64,000 nt of DNA from an uncultured Terracidiphilus sp. Lineage in GTDB: Bacteria; Acidobacteriota; Terriglobia; Terriglobales; Acidobacteriaceae. Positions 5,823-64,000 of the stretch are shown here, in pieces (within the stretch, counting starts at the first letter, position 1; each line of letters starts with the position of its first letter). The notes beneath the pieces were generated by a model. It did not search any database, was not told where the DNA came from, and saw nothing but the letters and a program-made list of their open reading frames with translations. The translations under genes were made by a program, and so were the position numbers. Where the stretch lies: the NCBI GenBank assembly GCA_964487345.1, contig CAZAQN010000012.1, forward strand, positions 26,822 through 90,821, in the 5' to 3' direction.

Positions 5823-8800
5823 ATGTCTGAATTTACGCATTTGCATTTGCATACGGAATACTCGCTCCTCGATGGGGCGTGCGACGTTCAGAAGCTTGTG
5901 GACCGGGTGGCGGCGCTGGGGCAGACCTCGGTCGCGATGACGGACCACGGAAATATCTACGGGGCTGTGCACTTCTTCAATGCGGCGAAAGAGAAGGGCA
6001 TCAAGCCGATTCTTGGGTGCGAGCTCTACGTGTGCAAGGCCGAGGACCATCGCGCCGAGACGCCCCACGACCAGTACAACCATCTGCTGGTGCTGGCGGA
6101 AAACGAAGAAGGCTACCGCAACCTGATTCGGTTGACGAGCGAGGCGAGCCTGCATGGGTTCTATCGCAAGCCGCGCGTGAGCAAGAAATATCTGGCGGAG
6201 AACTCGAAGGGCCTGATCGGGTTTTCAGGCTGCCTCAGTGGCGAGTTGTGCGAGGAACTGAGCGCGGGCCGCTATGAGAAGGGTAAGGCGGTTGCGCGCG
6301 AGTACCAGGATATTTTTGGGCGCGGCAATTTCTATCTGGAGATTCAGGACCAGGGGCTGGAGCAGGAGAAAAAGATTCAGGCGGACCTTTTTCGGCTGGA
6401 AAAGGAGCTGGAGATTCCGCTGGTGCTGACGAATGACTCGCACTACCTGTGCGGCGAGGACAGCCATGCCCACGACGTCATGCTGTGCGTGCAGACGGGC
6501 GCGAAGATTCACGATGCGGATCGGCTCCGCTTCGACTCCGATCAGTTCTTTGTGAAGAGCGCGGAGGAAATGGGGCGGATCTTTCCCGATTCTCCGGGCG
6601 TGGCGCAGCGGACGATGGAGATTGCGGAGCGTTGCAAGCTCAAATTAAACGCTGTCGATAATCCGTTTCCGGAGTTTGCTGTGCCGCCCGAGCACACCAT
6701 CGACAGCTACTTCGAGCAGGTGTGCCGCGAGGGATTGAAGAAGCGGTTCGAGACGGCGGTGCGGCAACTGGAGTTGCGCGGAGTGCTGCGCACGCCGTTG
6801 CATGAATACGAATCGCGGTTGAACTTTGAGATCGGCATCATCAAGCAGATGAAGTACTCAGGATATTTCCTGATTGTGTGGGATTTCATCAAGTACGCGC
6901 GGGATCATGGGATTCCGGTGGGACCGGGGCGCGGGTCGGCGACGGGATCGCTGGTGGCCTATGCGATGGAGATTACCAACATCGATCCGATGCAGAACGT
7001 GCTTCTGTTCGAGCGGTTTTTGAACCCCGAGCGCGTGACGATGCCGGATATCGACGTGGACTTTTGCCAGAACCGGCGCGGCGAGGTGATCGACTACGTA
7101 ACGCGGAAGTACGGGCGCGAGCAGGTGGCGCAGATCATCACCTTCAACACCATGGCGGCGAAGGCGTCGATCAAAGATTGCGGACGGGCGATGGATATGC
7201 CCTACGGCGACGTGGACCGCATTGCCAAGCTGGTGCCTTTGACGGTCGGGATGACGATTGATAAAGCGCTCGAAGAAGTTCCCGATCTGCGCAAGGCCTA
7301 TGACAACGACAAGCAGATTCGCGAGCTGATTGATACGGCGAAGAAGCTCGAGGGGTTGGTGCGCGGAGCCGGAGTTCACGCGTCGGCGGTGGTGATTGCG
7401 CCGCGGCCGCTGACTGAACTAGTTCCGCTGAACCGGACGAAGAACGATGAAATCGTGACTGCGTATGACATGAAGGCAGTCGAAAAAATGGGCCTGCTCA
7501 AGATGGATTTTCTAGGGCTCACGACGCTGACGGTGATTGACGATTGCGTGAAGCTGATTGAACAGACGCGCGGGGAGAAGCTGGATATCGAGATGATTCC
7601 GCTCGACGATCCAGAGACGTTCAAGAAGGTGTTCCACACGGCGCTGACGTCGGGAGTTTTTCAGTTCGAGTCGAGCGGGATGAGGGACATTTTGCGGCGG
7701 TACAAACCGGATTCGGTAGAAGAGTTGACGGCCTTGAATGCACTGTACAGGCCGGGGCCGATGAGCATGATCGACGACTTCATCGAGCGCAAGTGGGGCC
7801 GAAAGAAAGTGGAGTACCTGCTGCCGGAGCTTGAGGGGATTCTGAAGGACTCGCTCGGCGTGATTGTCTATCAGGAGCAGGTGATGCGGATCGCCAATGT
7901 GCTGGCGAGCTACTCGCTGGGCGAAGCCGATCTGCTGCGGCGGGCCATGGGAAAGAAGAATGCCGAGGCCATGGCGAAGCAGCGGGACCGGTTTGTGAGC
8001 GGCGCGGCGGCACTGGGGCACCCAAAGAATCCGGTCGGCGAGATCTTCGATCAGATGGAGAAGTTCTCGGGGTACGGGTTCAATAAGTCGCATTCTGCGG
8101 CCTACTCGCTGGTGGCTTATCAGACGGCTTATTTGAAGACGCATTATCCGGTGGAGTTTATGGCGGCGCTGCTGACGTCGGAAACGTCGAAGCCCGAGAA
8201 TGTCGTCAAGTACATTCAGGAATGCAAGGAGATAGGCATCAGCGTGGAACCGCCAGACGTGCAGGTCTCGGGCGCGCAGTTTACGCCTCATGTCACGCCG
8301 GAAGGTCAGGCGATTCGATTCGGGCTCGCTGCGGTGAAGAATGTCGGCGGCAATGCGATCGAGTCAATCAAGAAGGCGCGCGAGGAACTTGGCGGGCGGT
8401 TCACGAGCTTCTGGGAGTTTTGCGAGAAGGTCGATCTGCGCGTGATGAACAAGCGGGTCATTGAGTCGCTGATCAAGGCGGGGGCCCTCGATTCGCTAGG
8501 CAAGCGCGGACAGCTCTACAACGCGGTGGACAAGGCGATGGAACGCGCGCAGAAGGCGCAACGCGATGAGGCGCACGGACAGAGCGGCTTGTTTGGGCTT
8601 TTCAATGAAGCGCCTGCGCAGGGGCACGGCGGCGATGAATTGCCGCGTGCAGCGGATTGGGAAGAAGGCGAGCGGCTGGCGAACGAGAAAGAGGTGCTGG
8701 GGTTCTTTGTGTCGGGGCATCCGCTGGACAAGTATGCGGAGAAGCTGCGCAATTTGCCGGGGGTGATTTCGGTGGCCGAAGCGCTGGAACGAAAGCCGCC

Positions 8801-56817: not shown

Positions 56818-56897
56818 TGACGTGATATGTTCAGGGCATTCCGGAGGGCAACCTTGACGTGATATGTTCAGGGCATTCCGGAGGGCAACCTTGACGT
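56818..56897 (+). repeat. perfect 37-nt tandem duplication (2.16 copies) spanning the start codon of the downstream gene
   Basis: tgacgtgatatgttcagggcattccggagggcaacct occurs at 56818-56854 and 56855-56891, then tgacgt. Checked base by base. Confidence 0.95.
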
Positions 56898-58372
56898 TTG
56901 TCGGACTTCCTCGCGATATCTCTGTTTGCTTGCTCTCGTTGGCGATTGTTGCCGCGCCACTACCCGCCTCTGCTGCTGATCCGGGAAGCGCAGCCACGGC
57001 CATCCCAGCCGTTTCGGCTAGAGAGACTTCGGACGCCCGCCTCAACAAGGCGTACAAATTCAATGAGGGCGGATGGACGTATGTTCATCTCGAAGGCACG
57101 CCGGAACAGGTGGGGTTCCAGCACGGCTATCTGCTGGCTCGCGAGATCGAGGACAACGTCCATGTCTACACGGTGACTTCGCCGCACCAGGACAAGCGCC
57201 CGTGGACCTTCTTTCGCGAGGCGGCAGAGACGGTTCTGTGGCCGCACATCGATCCCGAGTACCAGGCGGAGTTAAAGGGAATTGTTGAGGGTCTGCAGGC
57301 GCAGGGCTCGACGCTCGATCTGTGGGACATTGTGGCGCTTAATGGCGATATTGAATTGAGCAACTACTACTTGCCGACGGTCAACAAGGCTGAAGGCAAA
57401 CCGAATCCTCCGGCAGCGGTAGCGCCGGGAAAATGTAGTGCCTTTGTCGCCACGGGATCCGCGACCAGGGATGGAAAGATCGTGATCGCGCACAGCAACT
57501 GGTCCTCCTACGCGGAGGGCGAGCGCTGGACCGTGGTGTTTGATATTGTGCCGGCCAAAGGGCAGCGCATCCTGATGGATGGATTACCGGGGGTAATTAC
57601 GAGTCAGGACGACTTCGGTGTGAACGCTGCCGGACTGATGATCACGGAGACCACGCTGCCCATGATGCGGGGCTTCGATGTGAATGGGATTCCGGAGTTT
57701 GAGCGGTCGCGCAAGGCCATGCAGTATGCGACGTCGATCGATGAATATGCCGCAATCATGCGCGAAGGCAACAACGGGGGCTATGCGAACTCGTGGCTGA
57801 TTGGCGATCGCAAGACGGGCGAGATTGGATACCTGGAACTGGGTCTGCATCACACGCCTCTGACGAAGAAGAAGGATGGTTATTTCGTTTCGTCGAATTT
57901 CGCCGCAGACCCTGCACTGATTCGCGACGATACGCGCGGATTTAATCCGAACGACCCCGAGAGCTCGATGAATGCCCGGCATATTCGTGCGGAGCAGTTT
58001 GTAAAGGAACACTACGGCAAGCTCGACACCGCGCTGGCGGAGGCCTATCTCTCCGATCACTATGACAGCTTCGAGCACAAGATCGACGCCGGCAAGCGCA
58101 GCCTGTGCGGGCACGAAGATACATCGCCAGTGGGCGAGAAGGTCTGGGGCGACGCGCCTCACGAGCCCGGTGGTGCGGTGACAGGCAAGGTGATGGACTC
58201 GGATATGGCGGCAAAGCTGAGCTTCACGGGCAGAGCGGGGCATCCATGTGGCGATGATTTCCTGGCTGCGCCGTTTCTTGCCGCGCATCCTGAGTTCGCG
58301 TGGCAGAAGCCGATCTTGCGCGACATGAAGGCCGGTCCGTGGACCACGTTCTCCGCCGGCGAGAAGCCCTGA
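56864..58372 (+). CDS. Ntn-hydrolase, phospholipase B-like / C45-type (tentative)
   Basis: Signal peptide. ...GKCSAFVATGSATRDGKIVIAHSNWSSY resembles the Cys-nucleophile segment of PLB-like/C45 Ntn hydrolases. Confidence 0.6.
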   Translation: MFRAFRRATLTFVGLPRDISVCLLSLAIVAAPLPASAADPGSAATAIPAVSARETSDARLNKAYKFNEGGWTYVHLEGTPEQVGFQHGYLLAREIEDNVHVYTVTSPHQDKRPWTFFREAAETVLWPHIDPEYQAELKGIVEGLQAQGSTLDLWDIVALNGDIELSNYYLPTVNKAEGKPNPPAAVAPGKCSAFVATGSATRDGKIVIAHSNWSSYAEGERWTVVFDIVPAKGQRILMDGLPGVITSQDDFGVNAAGLMITETTLPMMRGFDVNGIPEFERSRKAMQYATSIDEYAAIMREGNNGGYANSWLIGDRKTGEIGYLELGLHHTPLTKKKDGYFVSSNFAADPALIRDDTRGFNPNDPESSMNARHIRAEQFVKEHYGKLDTALAEAYLSDHYDSFEHKIDAGKRSLCGHEDTSPVGEKVWGDAPHEPGGAVTGKVMDSDMAAKLSFTGRAGHPCGDDFLAAPFLAAHPEFAWQKPILRDMKAGPWTTFSAGEKP

Positions 58373-58389: not shown

Positions 58390-59424
58390 TTACGTCGTCA
58401 CAGCCAGAGGTTGGGAGCAAGCTTCCTCGACCACGGTCCGGAGCGAATCGATCACCCGATCCGGCTGGTCGAGGTGAATCCAATGCCCGCTCTGGGGCAC
58501 GATGACCTGCCGCACATTTTCGCCGATCCGACCCAAGCATTCGTCCGACAGGGGCTTCGATTTGTCCGGCGTCAGCACGAGCACCGGGATCGAGCGAATG
58601 GGCTCGGCATTCAGCATCTCCCGCACCGAGTCGGGGACGGATTTCACGTGATGGCGCATGCCCGCATAAAAATCGGGCCGGGACCAATGCGCGGCGACCA
58701 CCGGCCAAACCTCCCGCGGCATTTTTCCGATCTCCTCGTGCACACGGCCCAGCACATGCCGGGCGCCATGCCCGCCTGCCCCGGCGAGCAATCGCGAAGC
58801 ACGGCCCGAGCGGCGCAGCAGGGAAGTCACAGCCAACCGCGCCAAGCCCATGTGCGCAATCGGAATCGCATAGCCTGAGAGCCTGTTTCCCAGATCGACT
58901 TCGGCCTGCCGGCTCGGATTCACTGGAGGCCACTCGTCGCAACGCATCGGATCGACCAGGACCAGGCTCGCTACGTCGTCGGGATACGAAAGCGCAAAAC
59001 GGCGCATCACTAATCCGCCGAAGGAGTGCCCCACGAGAATGTACGGTGGCCTGATCACTGCCCGCTCGAGCATTGCGTGCAGCTCAGAGGCAATGTTCGC
59101 GGGCGTGCGCGCGCTGCGGCAGGGACTGCTCCAACCTAGCCCTCCGCGGTCATACGAAGCGGTCGCAGTAAATCGCGAAACGGCCTGCTGAATCAGAAAC
59201 CAGTTCAGGTTGGTCGCAGCAATGCCCGATTCAAAAATGACCGTTTGGCCCTGGCCGGCTGTTCCCTTTTCGATCAGATAAAGTCGCCGGCCGCCGCCGA
59301 TGTCCACCCATCGCCCGTCGCCTGTAAAGCGCAAGCGATCGCGACGTGCACCTAACCATTGATAAAGGAAACCCACGAATGCCAGACCGAAGACGAAACC
59401 CACGGACAATACGATCAAATTCAT
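58390..59424 (-). CDS. alpha/beta hydrolase with N-terminal membrane anchor
   Basis: Nucleophile elbow GHSFGG and an N-terminal TM helix (MNLIVLSVGFVFGLAFVGFLY). Start at ATG 59422-59424. Confidence 0.85.
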   Translation of the reverse strand: MNLIVLSVGFVFGLAFVGFLYQWLGARRDRLRFTGDGRWVDIGGGRRLYLIEKGTAGQGQTVIFESGIAATNLNWFLIQQAVSRFTATASYDRGGLGWSSPCRSARTPANIASELHAMLERAVIRPPYILVGHSFGGLVMRRFALSYPDDVASLVLVDPMRCDEWPPVNPSRQAEVDLGNRLSGYAIPIAHMGLARLAVTSLLRRSGRASRLLAGAGGHGARHVLGRVHEEIGKMPREVWPVVAAHWSRPDFYAGMRHHVKSVPDSVREMLNAEPIRSIPVLVLTPDKSKPLSDECLGRIGENVRQVIVPQSGHWIHLDQPDRVIDSLRTVVEEACSQPLAVTT

Positions 59425-59980
59425 AGGCACCCTTGTGCTGCCATAGATCAGCCGAGGCCCTAGGTCCTCGTTCTGAATTGGGCGGGGAAGACCGTGAACG
59501 CAGTTTATCTGCTGCCCGCGCACGGTGTCTATGGAGGGTTTCGAGTCCTGTTGGGGACTGCAACTCATTTGTAAACGATGTGAATTTGAGTTTCCGTAGC
59601 CGGGCAGGCCACATGCAAAAGTGCCTGTCTAAATCCGGGTGCGCCAAGGCCTACGGGCGGATTGTTGGCAAAGCCGAAACCCTCCTTCGGCCAGCCAAAC
59701 GCGTTGCGCAAATTGTCCCCATGGATGCGAAGGCGTACAACCTCGCGCCATTGTCGCGGCCCATGCCGTCGGACGAGCGCTGAACATTGCCCCGCCCGTC
59801 AAAAGGAATACGGGAACAATCCGAGCGAGGCTCTTCATGGCACACGGAAATGCAGGGACGAGAAACCGCCCCTGCTGTTGTTGGATCGCAGGCATGATCC
59901 GTTTTACGCTGCTTCGAACCCCCGCATGAATTTGCCCAATTGCACGCAGATCCGAATCCATTTGTCGAAAAGAAGAGGCC

Positions 59981-60319
59981 TTAGTAACGCCCTCGTCCGC
60001 GGGCGCTGCCTGCTCCTCCGCCACTGCTGCCTTTTCGCGCCTGGTAGCAATCGCGGCAGAATACAGGCCGGTCGCCGCGCGGCTCAAAAGGAACAGTCGT
60101 TGGCTGGCCGCAGCCCGAGCAGATCACAGGCGTACCCTGTGCAGGAGCCGAACGATAGCCGCCGCCGGAACCCCCCTGGTCGTTTTTCTTTGCCATTCGG
60201 CATGGCTTGCAGCGTTTTGGTGTCGAATAACCACGTTCCTGAAAGAACGCCTGATCTGCAGCGGTGAAGGTAAAGTCCTGCCCGCAGTCGCTGCAAGTGA
60301 GCTGAATATCTCCTGCCAT
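59981..60319 (-). CDS. zinc-ribbon protein with CxxC-x17-CxxC module and Gly/Arg-rich tail
   Basis: CSDCGQDFTF...CKPC, then CSGC-(17 aa)-CRDC. ATG 60317-60319 is preceded by GAGGAA. Confidence 0.8.
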   Translation of the reverse strand: MAGDIQLTCSDCGQDFTFTAADQAFFQERGYSTPKRCKPCRMAKKNDQGGSGGGYRSAPAQGTPVICSGCGQPTTVPFEPRGDRPVFCRDCYQARKGSSGGGAGSARGRGRY

Positions 60320-60511
60320 GGGGTTTCCTCGTGCGGAGATTGTACCGCCCATTTGAACAATTTTGAATAAGGAATGTATTTAGAACGTAAAACTTACCCC
60401 GAGACCTCATCTGATGCTTTAAGTTTCATGACAGTCTGGAGTGGCTCGCACGCTATATTCGTTCAGTAAGTTTCGGGCTCACAGGATTGGCCCAGTTACT
60501 TCAATAGCAAT

Positions 60512-61138
60512 ATGCCGGCGAACCCAGAACTCGAGGCTGAATGCATCCGCCGGGTCATCGCCGGAGAGCGCCATCTCTTCCACGATCTGATTCGCCCTTG
60601 CGAGCGATCCATCTACCTCCTGCTGCTCTCGTTGCTCAAGAACGAAGCCGAAGCGGAGGACGCAGCGCAGGAAACTGCGATCAAGGTCTATCTGAACTTG
60701 CATCTTTTTCGAGGTGAAGCACAGTTCCGCACCTGGGTGCTATCCATCGCACGAAACGAGGCGCTCAGCCGCCTGCGCAAGCAGGGAATCCGCCGCGAGG
60801 AATCGCTCGATGCCGCGAGCGACGATCAGTCGGGCGACTATACGCCGGCCATCCTCACTAGTTGGCGCGAAGTCCCAACCGCAGCGCTTGAACAAAAGGA
60901 GCTTGGCGCCCTTCTTCGCAAGGCAATCGAGGGGTTGCCGGAGATTTACCGTAACATTGTGCTCCTCCGAGACATCGAAGAGATGGACATCCGCGAGACA
61001 GCAACCGCCCTCGGCATCAGCGAGGGAGCAGTGAAAGTCCGGCTGCATCGGGCTCGCGCAATGCTTCAGAGGGAGCTGGCCCCGCAATTGAAAGCGTTTG
61101 CACCCAAGCGCAGAGGTCTCTTGTGGGGGCGCGCATGA
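60512..61138 (+). CDS. ECF (group IV) RNA polymerase sigma factor
   Basis: Region 2 (...AEDAAQETAIKVY...FRTWVLSIARNEALSRLRK) and region 4 HTH (...MDIRETATALGISEGAVKVRLHRAR). Confidence 0.92.
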   Translation: MPANPELEAECIRRVIAGERHLFHDLIRPCERSIYLLLLSLLKNEAEAEDAAQETAIKVYLNLHLFRGEAQFRTWVLSIARNEALSRLRKQGIRREESLDAASDDQSGDYTPAILTSWREVPTAALEQKELGALLRKAIEGLPEIYRNIVLLRDIEEMDIRETATALGISEGAVKVRLHRARAMLQRELAPQLKAFAPKRRGLLWGRA

Positions 61139-61380
61139 GAATCGACTGCAAACACGTCTGGCAGCACATCTCCGCTTACATCGAGGGGGAGGTAGACGCA
61201 ACTATGCGCGCCGAGATCGACAAGCATCTCGAGACCTGCGAGATCTGCTCCGCAGTGCTGGACTCCACACGCAATGTCGTCATCCTCTTGGCCGACGACC
61301 GCGTCTTTGAGCTACCGGCCGGGTTTCGCCAGCGCCTCCATGAACGCATCGACAGAGCGTTACAAAGTGGCAGCTCATAG
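61135..61380 (+). CDS. soluble zinc-binding anti-sigma factor (ZAS, RsrA-like)
   Basis: 81 aa with no TM segment. Residues C5...H31-x3-C35-x2-C38. Its ATG overlaps the sigma-factor stop (ATGA at 61135-61138). Confidence 0.8.
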   Translation: MRIDCKHVWQHISAYIEGEVDATMRAEIDKHLETCEICSAVLDSTRNVVILLADDRVFELPAGFRQRLHERIDRALQSGSS

Positions 61381-61479
61381 TTAATACTTAATCAACACAA
61401 GAAACTCTTCAAGTTCCACCAGCGGTAAACAAACCATTCTGCGTTTCACATTCTTCAGCCCGATTCTTTGCCTCGCCTT

Positions 61480-62091
61480 TCATGCGAGAGAATTTTCACT
61501 TTCCGCTACGATCCCTGCATCTCTTCCACTCTCGCGCTGCTTCAGCTGAAATGCATGCGAGCTTGCCTCAGAATGTCTCGCCAGGGAAAAAGCGGCTCGG
61601 ACGCGCATCTCCGAAACATTGTGCGGAAAGACAGCGCCAGGCGGCGGCCCCGTCCGATGCACCATCGGATGAGTCCACGTCTCGAGCCCCACCAGGATCA
61701 GGGTCAGAATCGCCATCGCTATCTGCAGTTTTTCGCTTCGCTTTTCCTTCGCGCTCAACTCGCGCCTGCGCCACTGTGCCGAGGGCCGTGAACGGAGATG
61801 CCGGATCCAAGCCAACACCGCCAAATTCACAATCGCGCCAACCGTTGCCAGAATCAGCATGGGAATGCGAATCGCATCCTGATGAAAGCCTTTCGCCGGC
61901 GCATAGATGCCGCTGGCGGCTGCTAGGGCTGACAATCCAATCGCCACACGAATCCCGCTGATAGTGAGGACCGCGGTGCACAGGCTTTGCGCAATCGCGA
62001 CAATCAGGCCCGCGCCACCAATAGCGGTCCAACTTCTTGAATTCACCGGCAACCTCCCATCGCCAACCCGCATTTTGCGTGATAGGCTCAA
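61480..62091 (-). CDS. hypothetical membrane protein (about 4 TM)
   Basis: Four hydrophobic helices. The C-terminal about 50 aa look non-membrane. No family recognised. Overlapping opposite-strand ORFs make the call moderate. Confidence 0.45.
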   Translation of the reverse strand: MSLSRKMRVGDGRLPVNSRSWTAIGGAGLIVAIAQSLCTAVLTISGIRVAIGLSALAAASGIYAPAKGFHQDAIRIPMLILATVGAIVNLAVLAWIRHLRSRPSAQWRRRELSAKEKRSEKLQIAMAILTLILVGLETWTHPMVHRTGPPPGAVFPHNVSEMRVRAAFSLARHSEASSHAFQLKQRESGRDAGIVAESENSLA

Positions 62092-62361
62092 TCAGCTTAA
62101 GGCCTCTCGGGCCGATTCAAGAACCTGAGGCCAACTCGGTAAACTTCCGACCAATCCAATTGCCGCTGAGGCCCGTTCATCCAGCAAAGGGCCCGGAGCG
62201 AAGAAATTCATTTTCACTGGCACCCTTTTCGCTGTAACCTTTCGCCCGTGCAGCCACTCTTTGTGTGCGTGCCACGGAAAGTGCTGGATCGTTCCCTTGG
62301 TCCCGCATCGCCGCAAACGGCGGAGATCCTCCGCCCCAAACCCCAAGCGAGGTCAATCCAA

Positions 62362-62661
62362 ATGAAGAACCAATTCAATGCTCTGCTGCTTTCCGCAGCT
62401 CTCTCCGGTCTGGTTGGCGGAACTGTCGCGGCTCATGCGGCCACACCAGGAACCACGGCGAACGGCACCTCGGCCAAGGCAGTCAAGGCCGGCCTGCGCT
62501 ACACCAGCCAGGACACCACCAAGCACTCCTGTAAAGGCAAAAACGACTGTAAAGGCCAGGGCGGCTGCAAGTCGAGCGACAACGGCTGCAAAGGCAAGAA
62601 CAGCTGCAAAGGCAAGGGCGGCTGCGCAACCGACGGCTCCAAGATGCCGAAGCTGGTCTAA
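62362..62661 (+). CDS. Sec-exported Cys-rich RiPP precursor candidate (bufferin BufA2 / 6-Cys type-like)
   Basis: ATG 62362 gives MKNQFNALLLSAALSGLVGGTVAAHA|ATPG... (AxA cleavage site). The core is HSCKGKNDCKGQGGCKSSDNGCKGKNSCKGKGGCATDGSKMPKLV. Located immediately upstream of the DUF692/DUF2063 genes. Confidence 0.8.
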   Translation: MKNQFNALLLSAALSGLVGGTVAAHAATPGTTANGTSAKAVKAGLRYTSQDTTKHSCKGKNDCKGQGGCKSSDNGCKGKNSCKGKGGCATDGSKMPKLV

Positions 62662-62766
62662 CTCCACAAGGACCGGCCGCGGGCGTATTCACCAATTCAA
62701 GTTTCTGAATCCTCCCTCGGCCGATCCCACTTTCACCCCTGACGAGTCGTAACTTTACACCGGCTT

Positions 62767-62794
62767 CTGTTCCCCATTCCCTGATCCCTGTTCC
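62767..62794 (-). repeat. tandem heptamer array (GGAAYAG-like)x4, between precursor and MNIO genes
   Basis: Plus strand reads ctgttcc ccattcc ctgatcc ctgttcc (then ctgagtc), ending 14 nt before the DUF692 ATG. It is the reverse complement of the array family at 19523..19550. Confidence 0.8.
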
Positions 62795-62808
62795 CTGAGT
62801 CTTTATCC

Positions 62809-63669
62809 ATGCCCGGCAATCGCTTCAACGCGCATTCGAATCACGGCATCGGCATCGGCCTGCGCATTCCGCATTACCAGCACATCTTCTCGCGCCAGCC
62901 TATCGTCGATTGGTTCGAGATCATCTCTGAGAATTTCATGGTCGACGCAGGCCGCCCCCTCGCGGTCCTCGATCAGATTCTGGAGCAGTATCGCGTCGTT
63001 CAGCATGGGGTTTCCATGTACTTCGGCTCGGTGACCGCGCCCGATCCCGAACACCTCCGCCGATTGAAACAGCTCGTCCGCCGGACAAACACACCGTGGC
63101 TGAGCGACCATCTCTGCTGGGGTTCGGTTGACGGAACCTACACGCATGACTTGCTCCCGCTGCCTTACACGTGGGAGGCCGTGGAACGCACCGTGGAGCG
63201 TGTTCGTCACGTGCAGGATTACCTGGAGATCCCCGTTGCCGTCGAGAATGTCAGCTCCTACGCGGCATTCACTGGCTCGCAGATGACCGAATGGGAGTTC
63301 CTGAATGAAGTCGTCGAACGCGCCGACTGCGGCATTCTTCTGGATGTGAACAACATCTATGTCTCGTCCGTGAATCACGAGTTCAATCCGATCGACTACG
63401 TGAATGCCGTCCCCGCGCATCGCGTCGCGCAGATTCATATCGCTGGCCATTCGCGCTACGAGAAGTACATCCTCGACACGCACGACCATCCCGTCATCGA
63501 CCCGGTGTGGCAGTTGTATGAAAGAGCAATCGCCCGCTGCGGTCCAACGCCGACGCTGCTGGAGTGGGACGATCACATTCCTAGCTTTGATGAGGTGCAC
63601 GCCGAAGCAAAAAAGGCCGAGCGCTATCTCCTCGCTCACTCTGGAGAACTAGCGGAGGTAGCGAAATGA
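62809..63669 (+). CDS. DUF692 family multinuclear non-heme iron oxidase (MNIO; MbnB/BufB/HvfB-like)
   Basis: TIM-barrel DUF692 pattern: IGIGLRIPHY...WFEIISENF...HGVSMYFGS...WLSDHLCW...VENVSSY...LLDVNNIYVS...IHIAGH...DTHDHPV...TLLEWD. Confidence 0.92.
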   Translation: MPGNRFNAHSNHGIGIGLRIPHYQHIFSRQPIVDWFEIISENFMVDAGRPLAVLDQILEQYRVVQHGVSMYFGSVTAPDPEHLRRLKQLVRRTNTPWLSDHLCWGSVDGTYTHDLLPLPYTWEAVERTVERVRHVQDYLEIPVAVENVSSYAAFTGSQMTEWEFLNEVVERADCGILLDVNNIYVSSVNHEFNPIDYVNAVPAHRVAQIHIAGHSRYEKYILDTHDHPVIDPVWQLYERAIARCGPTPTLLEWDDHIPSFDEVHAEAKKAERYLLAHSGELAEVAK

Positions 63670-64000
63670 CCGCGCCAACAATGTCTCTCGCCGAACTCCA
63701 GCGCGAGATGGCAAAAGCTGTGATGCAGCCGCTCACAGCCACCGAAGACATGCATGCAGTCTCGGCCGACGGCCGCGACATGAACGCCGTTGCCGCGTCG
63801 TTCATCGCCCCCAACAGCAAGCTCAACGCCTTCGAGCGGCTCGAGATTTATAACCGTCAGTACTGGTATCGTTTGCTTGGCGCGTTGGCTGAGGATTTCC
63901 CCGCACTTCGAGCGGTGGTCGGGGCGCGTGCCTTTGAAGCGCTCTCCATCGCCTATCTCACTGCGCATCCCAGCCGCTCCTTCACATTGCGCAATCTCGG
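63666..64000 (+). CDS. DUF2063 family protein (MNIO partner, MbnC/BufC/HvfC-like), 3' end outside window
   Basis: Manual translation gives MTAPTMSLAELQREMAKAVMQP...KLNAFERLEIYNRQYWYRLLGALAEDFPALRAVVG... Its ATG overlaps the DUF692 stop (ATGA). Open to the end of the window, so it is absent from the ORF track. Confidence 0.85.
   Translation, partial: MTAPTMSLAELQREMAKAVMQPLTATEDMHAVSADGRDMNAVAASFIAPNSKLNAFERLEIYNRQYWYRLLGALAEDFPALRAVVGARAFEALSIAYLTAHPSRSFTLRNL

Follow-up and report, generated by a model that had tools for sequence, protein, structure and literature searches.

The locus and its genes

Near the end of a 64,000-nucleotide stretch of DNA from an uncultured Terracidiphilus sp. (contig CAZAQN010000012.1; this whole 64-kb stretch is called the window here) there is a group of genes which a first-pass annotation had described as a cluster for a ribosomally made, post-translationally modified peptide (RiPP), consisting of a multinuclear non-heme iron oxidase (MNIO, DUF692), a DUF2063 protein and a Sec-type precursor with six Cys. 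Pfam and NCBIfam matches together with inspection of the precursor bore out this description, all open reading frames (ORFs) of that annotation were found where it had placed them, and each of its family assignments was backed by Pfam and NCBIfam. Very probably the locus is a bufABCD operon of Terracidiphilus sp., seen here in its 5' part and belonging to the Buf2/BufA2 ('captophorin') family of bufferins; the following genes of it lie in the window:

62362-62661, plus strand: bufA, bufferin-2-type precursor of 99 aa with six Cys; signal peptide at about 62362-62439, followed by the core
62809-63669, plus strand: bufB, MNIO (DUF692) maturase of 286 aa (PF05114 and NF050167)
63666-64000, plus strand, cut by the window end: bufC, DUF2063 (PME-type 1) partner, with the first 111 of its 303 residues in the window

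Since the start of bufC overlaps the stop of bufB (ATGA), translational coupling of these two genes is indicated. Ten metagenome contigs, from bogs and peat, carry the MNIO protein of the window in identical form; six of them were retrieved, and contig L001 differs from the window by 5 mismatches in 4000 bases. The first-pass annotation had also guessed at a DoxX-like gene further downstream, and such a gene is indeed present after bufC on near-identical contigs that extend past the window end. The remainder of the operon could be read there:

L001 6050-6961, outside the window: full-length bufC, 303 aa
L001 6973-7458, outside the window: bufD, DoxX protein of 161 aa (PF07681), 12 nt after bufC

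The loci used for comparison came from a scan with one genome per species, which gave 80 loci with MNIOs 76-95% identical to BufB of the window; all of these species-level loci belong to Acidobacteriaceae, and most of them are labelled Terracidiphilus. Synteny was counted over 81 related loci overall, 56 of them with full flank coverage. The small ORF, whose conservation beside the two enzyme genes the first-pass annotation had considered decisive, proved to be a constant member of the locus: in 79 of the 81 loci a bufA-type ORF stands beside the MNIO and DUF2063 genes, immediately upstream of bufB. The DoxX gene bufD was present in 55 of the 56 fully covered loci. BufB, BufC and BufD, together with a six-Cys Sec precursor, make up the canonical bufferin layout.

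The precursor BufA

By inspection, BufA begins with MKNQ and continues with a hydrophobic stretch ending in AHA before the next A, there is no lipobox Cys, and this region is conserved in the relatives. In place of a leader peptide the protein is thus predicted to carry a Sec signal peptide. The signal-like part is followed by a linker of about 30 residues and then by the core, which has exactly six Cys (C57, C63, C69, C76, C82 and C88) arranged as CKGKNxCKGxGGC twice in tandem. Five of the six Cys stand in CK motifs, and all six are at least 97% conserved in the 79 loci. Altogether 5448 relatives of BufA were found.

A tblastn search of BufA against plasmids gave no match, probably owing to low-complexity masking, and annotated BufA2 genes were reached via BufB, in plasmid clusters of Legionella pneumophila and Asticcacaulis excentricus. 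The small ORFs of these two clusters pass the NF050166 model (BufA2 family periplasmic bufferin-type metallophore) with 80.5 and 100 bits, respectively. In the alignment the Cys of the acidobacterial BufA correspond one for one with those of the Legionella and Asticcacaulis BufA2, and so do the G, N and KG positions that flank them.

The view that the locus represents a poorly described biosynthetic system has to be given up. Six-Cys ORFs beside DUF692 and DUF2063 genes were pointed out in 2021 (PMC8692599), and the family was named BUF_6/12Cys, that is Buf2, and characterised in Caulobacter vibrioides in 2024 (PMC11626156). The earlier statement that this precursor type is uncharacterised is correct for the acidobacterial lineage, but not for the family at large, which has been studied as Buf2.

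The maturation enzymes

BufB matched PF05114 (MbnB_TglH_ChrH) with 365 bits (E 1.7e-109), and with 356.1 bits it was above the cut-off of 310 of NF050167 (MNIO_BufB), the equivalog model of the 'MNIO family bufferin maturase'. It stayed under the cut-offs of the models for HvfB (258 vs 360), MbnB (TIGR04159, 40.7 vs 325), ApyH and ChrH. The solved structures closest to BufB by sequence are 3BWW (Histophilus DUF692), 8HCI (ApyH) and 7DZ9 (MbnB). The iron ligands, on which the first-pass annotation had made its assignment depend, are retained: the nine putative ligands H66, H101, E146, D179, N182, H210, D223, H225 and E252 are identical residues in all three structures, and each of them is at least 97% conserved among 81 homologues. 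Their spacing matches what we take to be the MbnB set (H54, H90, E133, D163, N166, H192, D208, H210 and E239).

In MNIOs the position after the catalytic Asp is connected with substrate specificity, being Asp in the Cys-Lys enzymes (e.g. BufB2) and Phe in the Lys-Cys enzymes (PMC13097082). In BufB the segment LLEWDD, with W253-D254-D255, faces LLERDF of 3BWW, and both D254 and D255 are at least 97% conserved. According to this alignment BufB is assigned to the Cys-Lys substrate class, where the correspondence to D249/F250 of FonB is drawn by way of 3BWW. With the WDD signature in BufB and CK at five of the six Cys in BufA, the enzyme and its substrate agree with each other as a pair of the Cys-Lys type. 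The DUF2063 partner BufC scored 59 bits with PF09836 (cut-off 27.2), and 29 bits with the HvfC model, the cut-off of which is 142.

The bufA promoter and RNA elements

The stretch between the upstream genes and bufB contains the following further features, the first three of which are genes discussed below (ECF, extracytoplasmic function; ZAS, zinc anti-sigma factor; UTR, untranslated region):

60512-61138, plus strand: ECF sigma factor, 208 aa, RpoE/SigW-like (Pfam Sigma70_r2 and Sigma70_r4_2)
61123-61380 (GTG start) or 61135-61380 (ATG start), plus strand: ZAS, 81-85 aa, zf-HC2, overlapping the sigma gene
61480-62046/62091, minus strand: small polytopic membrane protein, 188-203 aa, with a core of about 139 aa at 61630-62046
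62233-62259, plus strand: ECF-type promoter-like element TGTAACC-N16-ACTC, with the -35 at 62233-62239 and the -10 at about 62256-62259
62319-62335, plus strand: hairpin GGCGGAG-AUC-CUCCGCC in the 5'UTR, with a C-rich tract and a GAGG ribosome-binding site after it
62670-62727, plus strand: stem-loop just after the bufA stop, from folding of the window sequence

When the upstream regions of bufA from 75 loci were aligned, a sharp conserved block, TGTAAC(C/T)-N16-(A/G)(C/G)TC, was recognized about 130 nt before the bufA start. This motif has a single match in the window, and of its 72 matches on both strands of 1.15 Mb of related loci 68 lie within 320 nt upstream of bufA. The -10 is ACTC, often in the form ACTCCTA or ACTCCAA. 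No sigma-70-like promoter was predicted in the bufA upstream region.

The 5'UTR hairpin is found at this position in 62 of the 75 loci, while its outer pair varies among G-C, C-G, A-U and U-A. As for the second RNA element, the 80 nt after the bufA stop were compared with shuffled sequences in 79 loci, which gave a median folding z of -3.3 with 71% of the loci below -2; for control stretches inside bufB the median was 0.07, with 4% below -2. The sequences of the post-bufA stems differ between loci. This stem-loop is a candidate partial terminator or mRNA stabiliser which would set the precursor-to-enzyme ratio, and precursor mRNA held in excess by such an element is common in RiPP operons. An Rfam search of 60300-64000 (E <= 1) returned no family for the 5'UTR hairpin or the intergenic one.

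The ECF sigma factor and its zinc anti-sigma factor

The closest solved structures of the sigma factor are SigW (5WUQ, 8Z6G) and AlgU (6IN7), and RpoE is also among its best relatives. It is 24% identical to the SigF-type (ECF16) sigma of Asticcacaulis, and the top NCBIfam models of these two proteins differ; as judged by sequence, the neighbouring sigma is not an ECF16 member. The ZAS matched the Pfam family zf-HC2 with 47.5 bits (cut-off 22.2) and has no transmembrane segment. Its residues C9, H35, C39 and C42 form the motif C-x25-H-x3-C-x2-C, in which the C-to-H spacing equals that of RsrA, and they are at least 97% conserved among 60 homologues. With the RsrA model itself the protein scored 40 bits (cut-off 62.5), and a weak match to the RsiW anti-sigma domain (E 0.04) was also obtained. 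Since the ZAS has no membrane or periplasmic domain, it could sense only a cytoplasmic signal.

The sigma gene is conserved near buf in 61 of the 81 loci, and the sigma/ZAS pair is present in 45 of the 56 fully covered ones. In 32 of these 56 the sigma gene, the ZAS gene and the convergent membrane-protein gene stand directly upstream of bufA, in 11 the pair stands further upstream because of insertions (with the membrane-protein gene still adjoining bufA in 10 of these), and in 2 the pair lies downstream of bufD. The last two are the most telling cases: in Silvibacterium bohemicum S15 (L086, 4297-8540) the sigma start overlaps the bufD stop (ATGA), and in an Alloacidobacterium metagenome-assembled genome (L083, 7641-11639) a gap of 3 nt separates bufD from the sigma gene; the sigma and ZAS genes overlap in either locus. 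These two loci read bufA-bufB-bufC-bufD-sigma-ZAS along one strand, and the membrane-protein gene comes next, in convergent orientation. As the last two genes of the buf operon, sigma and ZAS would there be transcribed from the TGTAACC promoter, which would amount to ECF positive feedback.

The first-pass annotation had set the cluster under this sigma/ZAS pair. A functional link of the two is supported by the comparative genomics, but not a common arrangement in the window: a minus-strand gene lies between ZAS and bufA, and therefore the sigma pair and bufA are separate transcription units there; moreover a sigma-70-like -10 of its own stands before the sigma gene, and the bufA motif does not occur upstream of that gene.

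Divergent from the sigma gene stands a gene for a protein of 112-123 aa with two treble-clef zinc-ribbon domains (zf_Tbcl and zf_Tbcl_2) and eight Cys (59981-60352, minus strand). It is a conserved neighbour of the sigma gene in 53 of the 81 loci, and it is found directly upstream of bufA where the sigma pair is missing (L024, L039 and L065). Upstream of it lie an extended -10, TGTACAAT, and an AT-rich near-palindrome (TTTTTCAATTCAAAAG-like) that is conserved and could serve as a regulator site. In the window, GTAAGTTTT...ATTCCTTA resembles the bufA motif and had suggested the zf_Tbcl gene as a second target of the ECF promoter; this was ruled out, as the elements conserved across loci are the AT-rich near-palindrome CTAAGTTTTT and the sigma-70-like extended -10.

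An overlooked membrane-protein gene

The gene between ZAS and bufA, which is divergent from bufA and convergent with ZAS, was absent from the first-pass annotation. Its relatives have 135-150 aa, and the copy of the window carries in addition a non-conserved C-terminal tail of 40 residues, running through a terminator-like hairpin (61596-61615), which suggests that a stop codon was lost in this lineage. No Pfam or NCBIfam family was found for the protein, the only Pfam matches being noise (e.g. CopD, E 0.37). It has about 2000 close relatives, none of them meaningfully named, and 306 representatives among 1.84 billion cluster representatives. C23, H55, R60, R85, E122 and H126 are invariant down to about 30% identity; they are placed within hydrophobic helices or at the ends of these, and the Cys, the two His and the Glu among them suggest a putative metal site. 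The last two helices are joined by a very basic loop, which should lie on the cytoplasmic side. The AlphaFold2 model of the protein is unreliable (predicted local distance difference test, pLDDT, 59.8). A profile of 62 members gave no signal against the two NrsF proteins of Asticcacaulis, and the idea of a divergent NrsF (DUF1109) was dropped.

The gene adjoins bufA in 45 of the 56 fully covered loci, and also in loci where the sigma pair has been displaced or is missing it stays beside and divergent from bufA. A metagenome scan with a narrow alignment of the protein confirmed 8 loci. On two distant metagenome contigs (L095 and L096, in the latter at 5908-7222) the gene is convergent with sigma/ZAS and there are no buf genes within 6 kb; in the lineage of L089-L094 it is preceded, at a distance of about 100 nt, by a TGTAACCTT element of its own, and in L091 a bufABCD operon lies 2.6 kb from it on the same contig. 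Two side observations can be added: L095 and L096 share the blocks AGAGTGT(A/G)ATT and GCGTCTA upstream of the gene, and in L096 it stands just downstream of a tatA-like ORF. The 2025 survey of bufferin clusters counted unrelated genes only within 10 bp of a core gene (PMC12452194), a rule by which the membrane-protein gene would have been excluded by design.

On the strength of this synteny we propose that the membrane protein may belong to the same regulon or sensing module as buf, sigma and ZAS. A further step, which we offer tentatively and consider doubtful as yet, would be that the Acidobacteriaceae bufferin is wired to an undescribed module in which an RpoE/SigW-like ECF sigma, a soluble ZAS and the small membrane protein replace SigF/NrsF. 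If this were true, the membrane protein could relay the copper or redox status of the periplasm or membrane to the ZAS, or move metal itself, and the module, which is also found without buf in other lineages, would be a stand-alone envelope metal/redox-sensing unit.

Other neighbouring genes

In the upstream flank of these genes the window encodes a secreted phospholipase-B-like protein (56864-58372, plus strand), which matches PF04916 on the identical contig L002, and an alpha/beta-hydrolase whose N-terminus has a membrane segment (58390-59568, minus strand); neither has an apparent link to buf. On the other side, about 40 nt after bufD, a GT4 glycosyltransferase gene (L001 7498-8586) is kept in 48 of the 81 loci, and in some loci a GH2 beta-mannosidase-like gene (L001 8693-11320) comes after it. 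The presence of these two downstream genes is probably a matter of synteny, not of membership in the cluster.

Alternative explanations

Several observations weigh against the proposed reading, and they concern the precursor as well as its regulator. BufA scored 37.6 bits with NF050166 against a cut-off of 60, only positions 16-65 of the 79 in the profile being matched; the 40 relatives that were sampled all hit this model too, and none of them came up to the cut-off (best E 1.7e-11). Compared to the Legionella and Asticcacaulis BufA2, the acidobacterial protein is without a segment of seven residues before the last Cys, and its AlphaFold2 model, made from a shallow alignment, has a pLDDT of 48.7 and no confident fold; because of this deletion and the unconfident fold the pattern of modified Cys may differ from that of Caulobacter Buf2. 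The sub-cut-off score can be explained by the deletion and the longer linker, and it is owing to such scores that proteins of this kind are labelled hypothetical in the sources. Taken with the Cys-for-Cys alignment, the deletion and the longer linker point to a divergent Buf2 subfamily, not to a different type of precursor. The low score and the low-confidence model would also suit an unmodified, metallothionein-like Cys-rich protein of the periplasm, the MNIO acting on some other substrate, but bufA is immediately upstream of bufB in those 79 of 81 loci, its six Cys align with those of bona fide BufA2, the substrate-class signature of BufB fits CK motifs (PMC13097082) and the locus has no other conserved precursor ORF, and we consider this explanation very improbable. 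A modified BufA might instead serve against another thiophilic metal or metalloid of acidic peat or in the defence against oxidants (hypochlorite, peroxide), with the ZAS sensing thiol oxidation. The full RsrA-like motif of the ZAS and its restriction to a cytoplasmic signal agree with such a role, related MNIO-PME1 clusters respond to oxidative/hypochlorite stress, and other metals are suggested by fusions of MerC with bufferins (PMC13097082, PMC12452194); on the other hand copper is bound by all characterised members, and in Caulobacter it is Cu, not Fe, Zn or Mn, that the buf genes respond to (PMC11626156, PMC13097082). This role we regard as rather unlikely, and a 5-thiooxazole modification together with a copper function, by analogy with the characterised members, as probable for the acidobacterial BufA.

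The remaining points against concern the promoter and the sigma factor. The -35 of bufA is the corresponding half of the published ECF16 consensus, tGTAACc-N16-CGAA (PMC3511200, PMC3420878, PMC8315932), yet the neighbouring sigma is not ECF16. In the Terracidiphilus loci the sigma gene has a conserved sigma-70-like -10, TATAGT, and no TGTAACC element, so that there is no sign of the usual ECF self-regulation in this genus (a single match upstream of a sigma gene, in L070, is probably due to chance). Furthermore, 11 of the 56 fully covered loci keep the promoter context with no sigma pair in the fetched flanks, and the 2025 survey has sigma genes in Buf1, not in Buf2, clusters (PMC12452194). 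As regards the latter, on plasmid pASEM-1 of Asticcacaulis excentricus (L088, 1132-7406) a buf2-type cluster (BufA2, MNIO, DUF2063), divergent from a buf1 cluster, is followed directly by a sigma gene and two NrsF genes, and this layout shows, at variance with the general statement of the survey, that a Buf2 cluster can include sigma/NrsF. The main rival is an unlinked ECF sigma (e.g. ECF16/SigF-like) that drives bufA of an otherwise genuine bufferin operon, adjacency of the sigma pair being then inherited synteny or a shared stress theme. In Caulobacter SigF, an ECF16 sigma, controls both buf1 and buf2 (PMC3511200, PMC3420878, PMC8315932). Asticcacaulis has GTAACC-N16-CGTA, with the same -35, before both bufA2 and bufA1, beside its SigF/NrsF set, and bufA of the acidobacterial loci keeps its promoter in 10 loci where insertions displace the sigma pair. 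Against an unlinked sigma it can be said that the bufA -10 is ACTC or a variant of it, not the CGAA/CGTA of ECF16, that neither an ECF16 sigma nor NrsF was found in the 64-kb window, and that two genera have sigma and ZAS in one operon with bufABCD. The RpoE/AlgU consensus is GGAACTT-N16-TCnAA, and an AAC-containing -35 with a TC-containing -10 suits RpoE/AlgU/SigW-like promoters as well. We hold the unlinked sigma to be possible but doubt it; from the promoter and synteny comparisons the local sigma appears the most likely reader of the bufA promoter, a preference which we would call modest.

Proposed mechanism

Following the assignment to Buf2, BufA would be synthesised with a Sec signal peptide, and before export the iron-dependent oxidase BufB with the DUF2063/RRE-type BufC (RRE, RiPP recognition element) would turn several of its Cys into 5-thiooxazoles; by analogy with Caulobacter Buf2, the central four Cys would be modified and the outer two would be in a disulfide. 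The first-pass annotation had quoted oxazolone/thioamide chemistry for HvfA, which has since been superseded: the oxazolin product was reassigned to 5-thiooxazoles in 2026, when the class name captophorins was proposed (PMC13097082), and the title of a 2026 preprint (bioRxiv 10.64898/2026.07.17.739211) agrees with the reassignment for HvfA. The modified BufA would be exported and would buffer excess periplasmic copper, while BufD (DoxX) may be an accessory membrane protein not needed for the modification.

Transcription would start from the TGTAACC-N16-ACTC element, about 130 nt before bufA, and the most probable reader of this element is the neighbouring ECF sigma, which the soluble ZAS would hold inactive until a thiol-reactive, redox or metal signal arrives. 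Behind bufA, the hairpin probably serves to hold the precursor at a higher level than the enzymes, and the membrane protein with its invariant Cys/His/Glu/His may act in the same regulon or sensing module. The whole chain, from the Buf2 operon through thiooxazole/copper function to control by the local sigma, we consider moderately probable.

Significance

Bufferins were recognised in 2024 as probably the largest group of RiPPs made by MNIOs. To our knowledge, every bufferin studied so far is from Proteobacteria. Here the family is found to be near-universal in a dominant acidobacterial genus of peat and soil, in the form of a divergent precursor which escapes the curated model of NCBI. Metal handling of Acidobacteria in acidic, organic-rich soils is poorly understood. 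New in this study are the conserved bufA promoter, the sigma/ZAS-buf linkage across Acidobacteriaceae and the overlooked membrane-protein gene, and these are concrete leads on the control of bufferins outside Proteobacteria. Silvibacterium bohemicum S15, a cultured carrier of the co-operonic version, is a natural organism for testing them.

Comparison with known systems

Methanobactin (MbnABC) shares with the present cluster the MNIO fold and the iron ligands, and its Cys are also rearranged oxidatively to a heterocycle and a sulfur ligand for copper. It differs in having a precursor with a leader peptide, an MbnC which is not a DUF2063 protein, an oxazolone/thioamide product and a function in copper acquisition instead of buffering. 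The locus was not classified as a methanobactin gene cluster: the MbnB model stayed below its cut-off, the precursor has a signal peptide and the partner is DUF2063. Oxazolin (HvfABC), fontiphorin and gonophorin have in common with it an MNIO and a PME-type 1 partner, a Sec-exported Cys-rich precursor and a DoxX-type HvfX; copper binding through 5-thiooxazoles would be shared with the acidobacterial cluster by analogy. Their precursors are built of EGKCG repeats ('Lys-Cys'), and the specificity position is Phe there (DF in 3BWW) and Asp here (DD).

With respect to the regulators, SigR-RsrA and SigW-RsiW also consist of an ECF sigma gene that overlaps a ZAS gene with the C...H-x3-C-x2-C motif, and RsrA is short and soluble like the anti-sigma described here. 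Sequence similarity to them is weak, and unlike in those systems an autoregulatory promoter was not seen in this genus.

All characterised members (Buf1, Buf2, oxazolin, fontiphorin and gonophorin) bind copper (PMC11626156, PMC13097082). In the 2025 survey Buf2 precursors were gathered by the thousand, and the core cluster was taken to consist of a precursor, an MNIO, DUF2063 and DoxX (PMC12452194). Bufferin 1 (bufA1B1C1D1) has the same precursor-MNIO-DUF2063-DoxX layout, an adjacent ECF sigma/anti-sigma pair and the -35 TGTAACC; its precursor is a four-Cys DUF2282 protein, unlike the six-Cys one here, and a six-transmembrane NrsF and a -10 CGAA stand in place of the soluble ZAS and ACTC. For Buf1 DoxX was found dispensable for the modification (PMC11626156).

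The closest counterpart is Buf2 of Caulobacter, which is induced by copper and not by Fe, Zn or Mn, shows shifts of -4.03 Da on its central Cys and is exported in a Sec-dependent manner (PMC11626156). Both systems have a Sec signal peptide, six Cys in a C-x-G-x-N-x-C-K-G pattern, a BufB-equivalog MNIO of the Cys-Lys class, a translationally coupled DUF2063 partner and a control of ECF type, which is predicted for the present locus. The precursor described here is different in that seven residues before CysVI are missing, the linker is about 15 residues longer and the score is below the NF050166 cut-off; a DoxX gene, lacking in Caulobacter buf2, is present, and so is the additional conserved membrane-protein gene, and the phylum is Acidobacteriota. 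While the regulator in Caulobacter is SigF/NrsF, the candidate here is an RpoE/SigW-like sigma with a soluble ZAS, and together with the conserved uncharacterised membrane protein this makes a regulatory neighbourhood unlike the SigF/NrsF arrangement of bufferins. The picture of the bufferins themselves is thereby left unchanged, and a lineage-specific regulatory variant is added to it.

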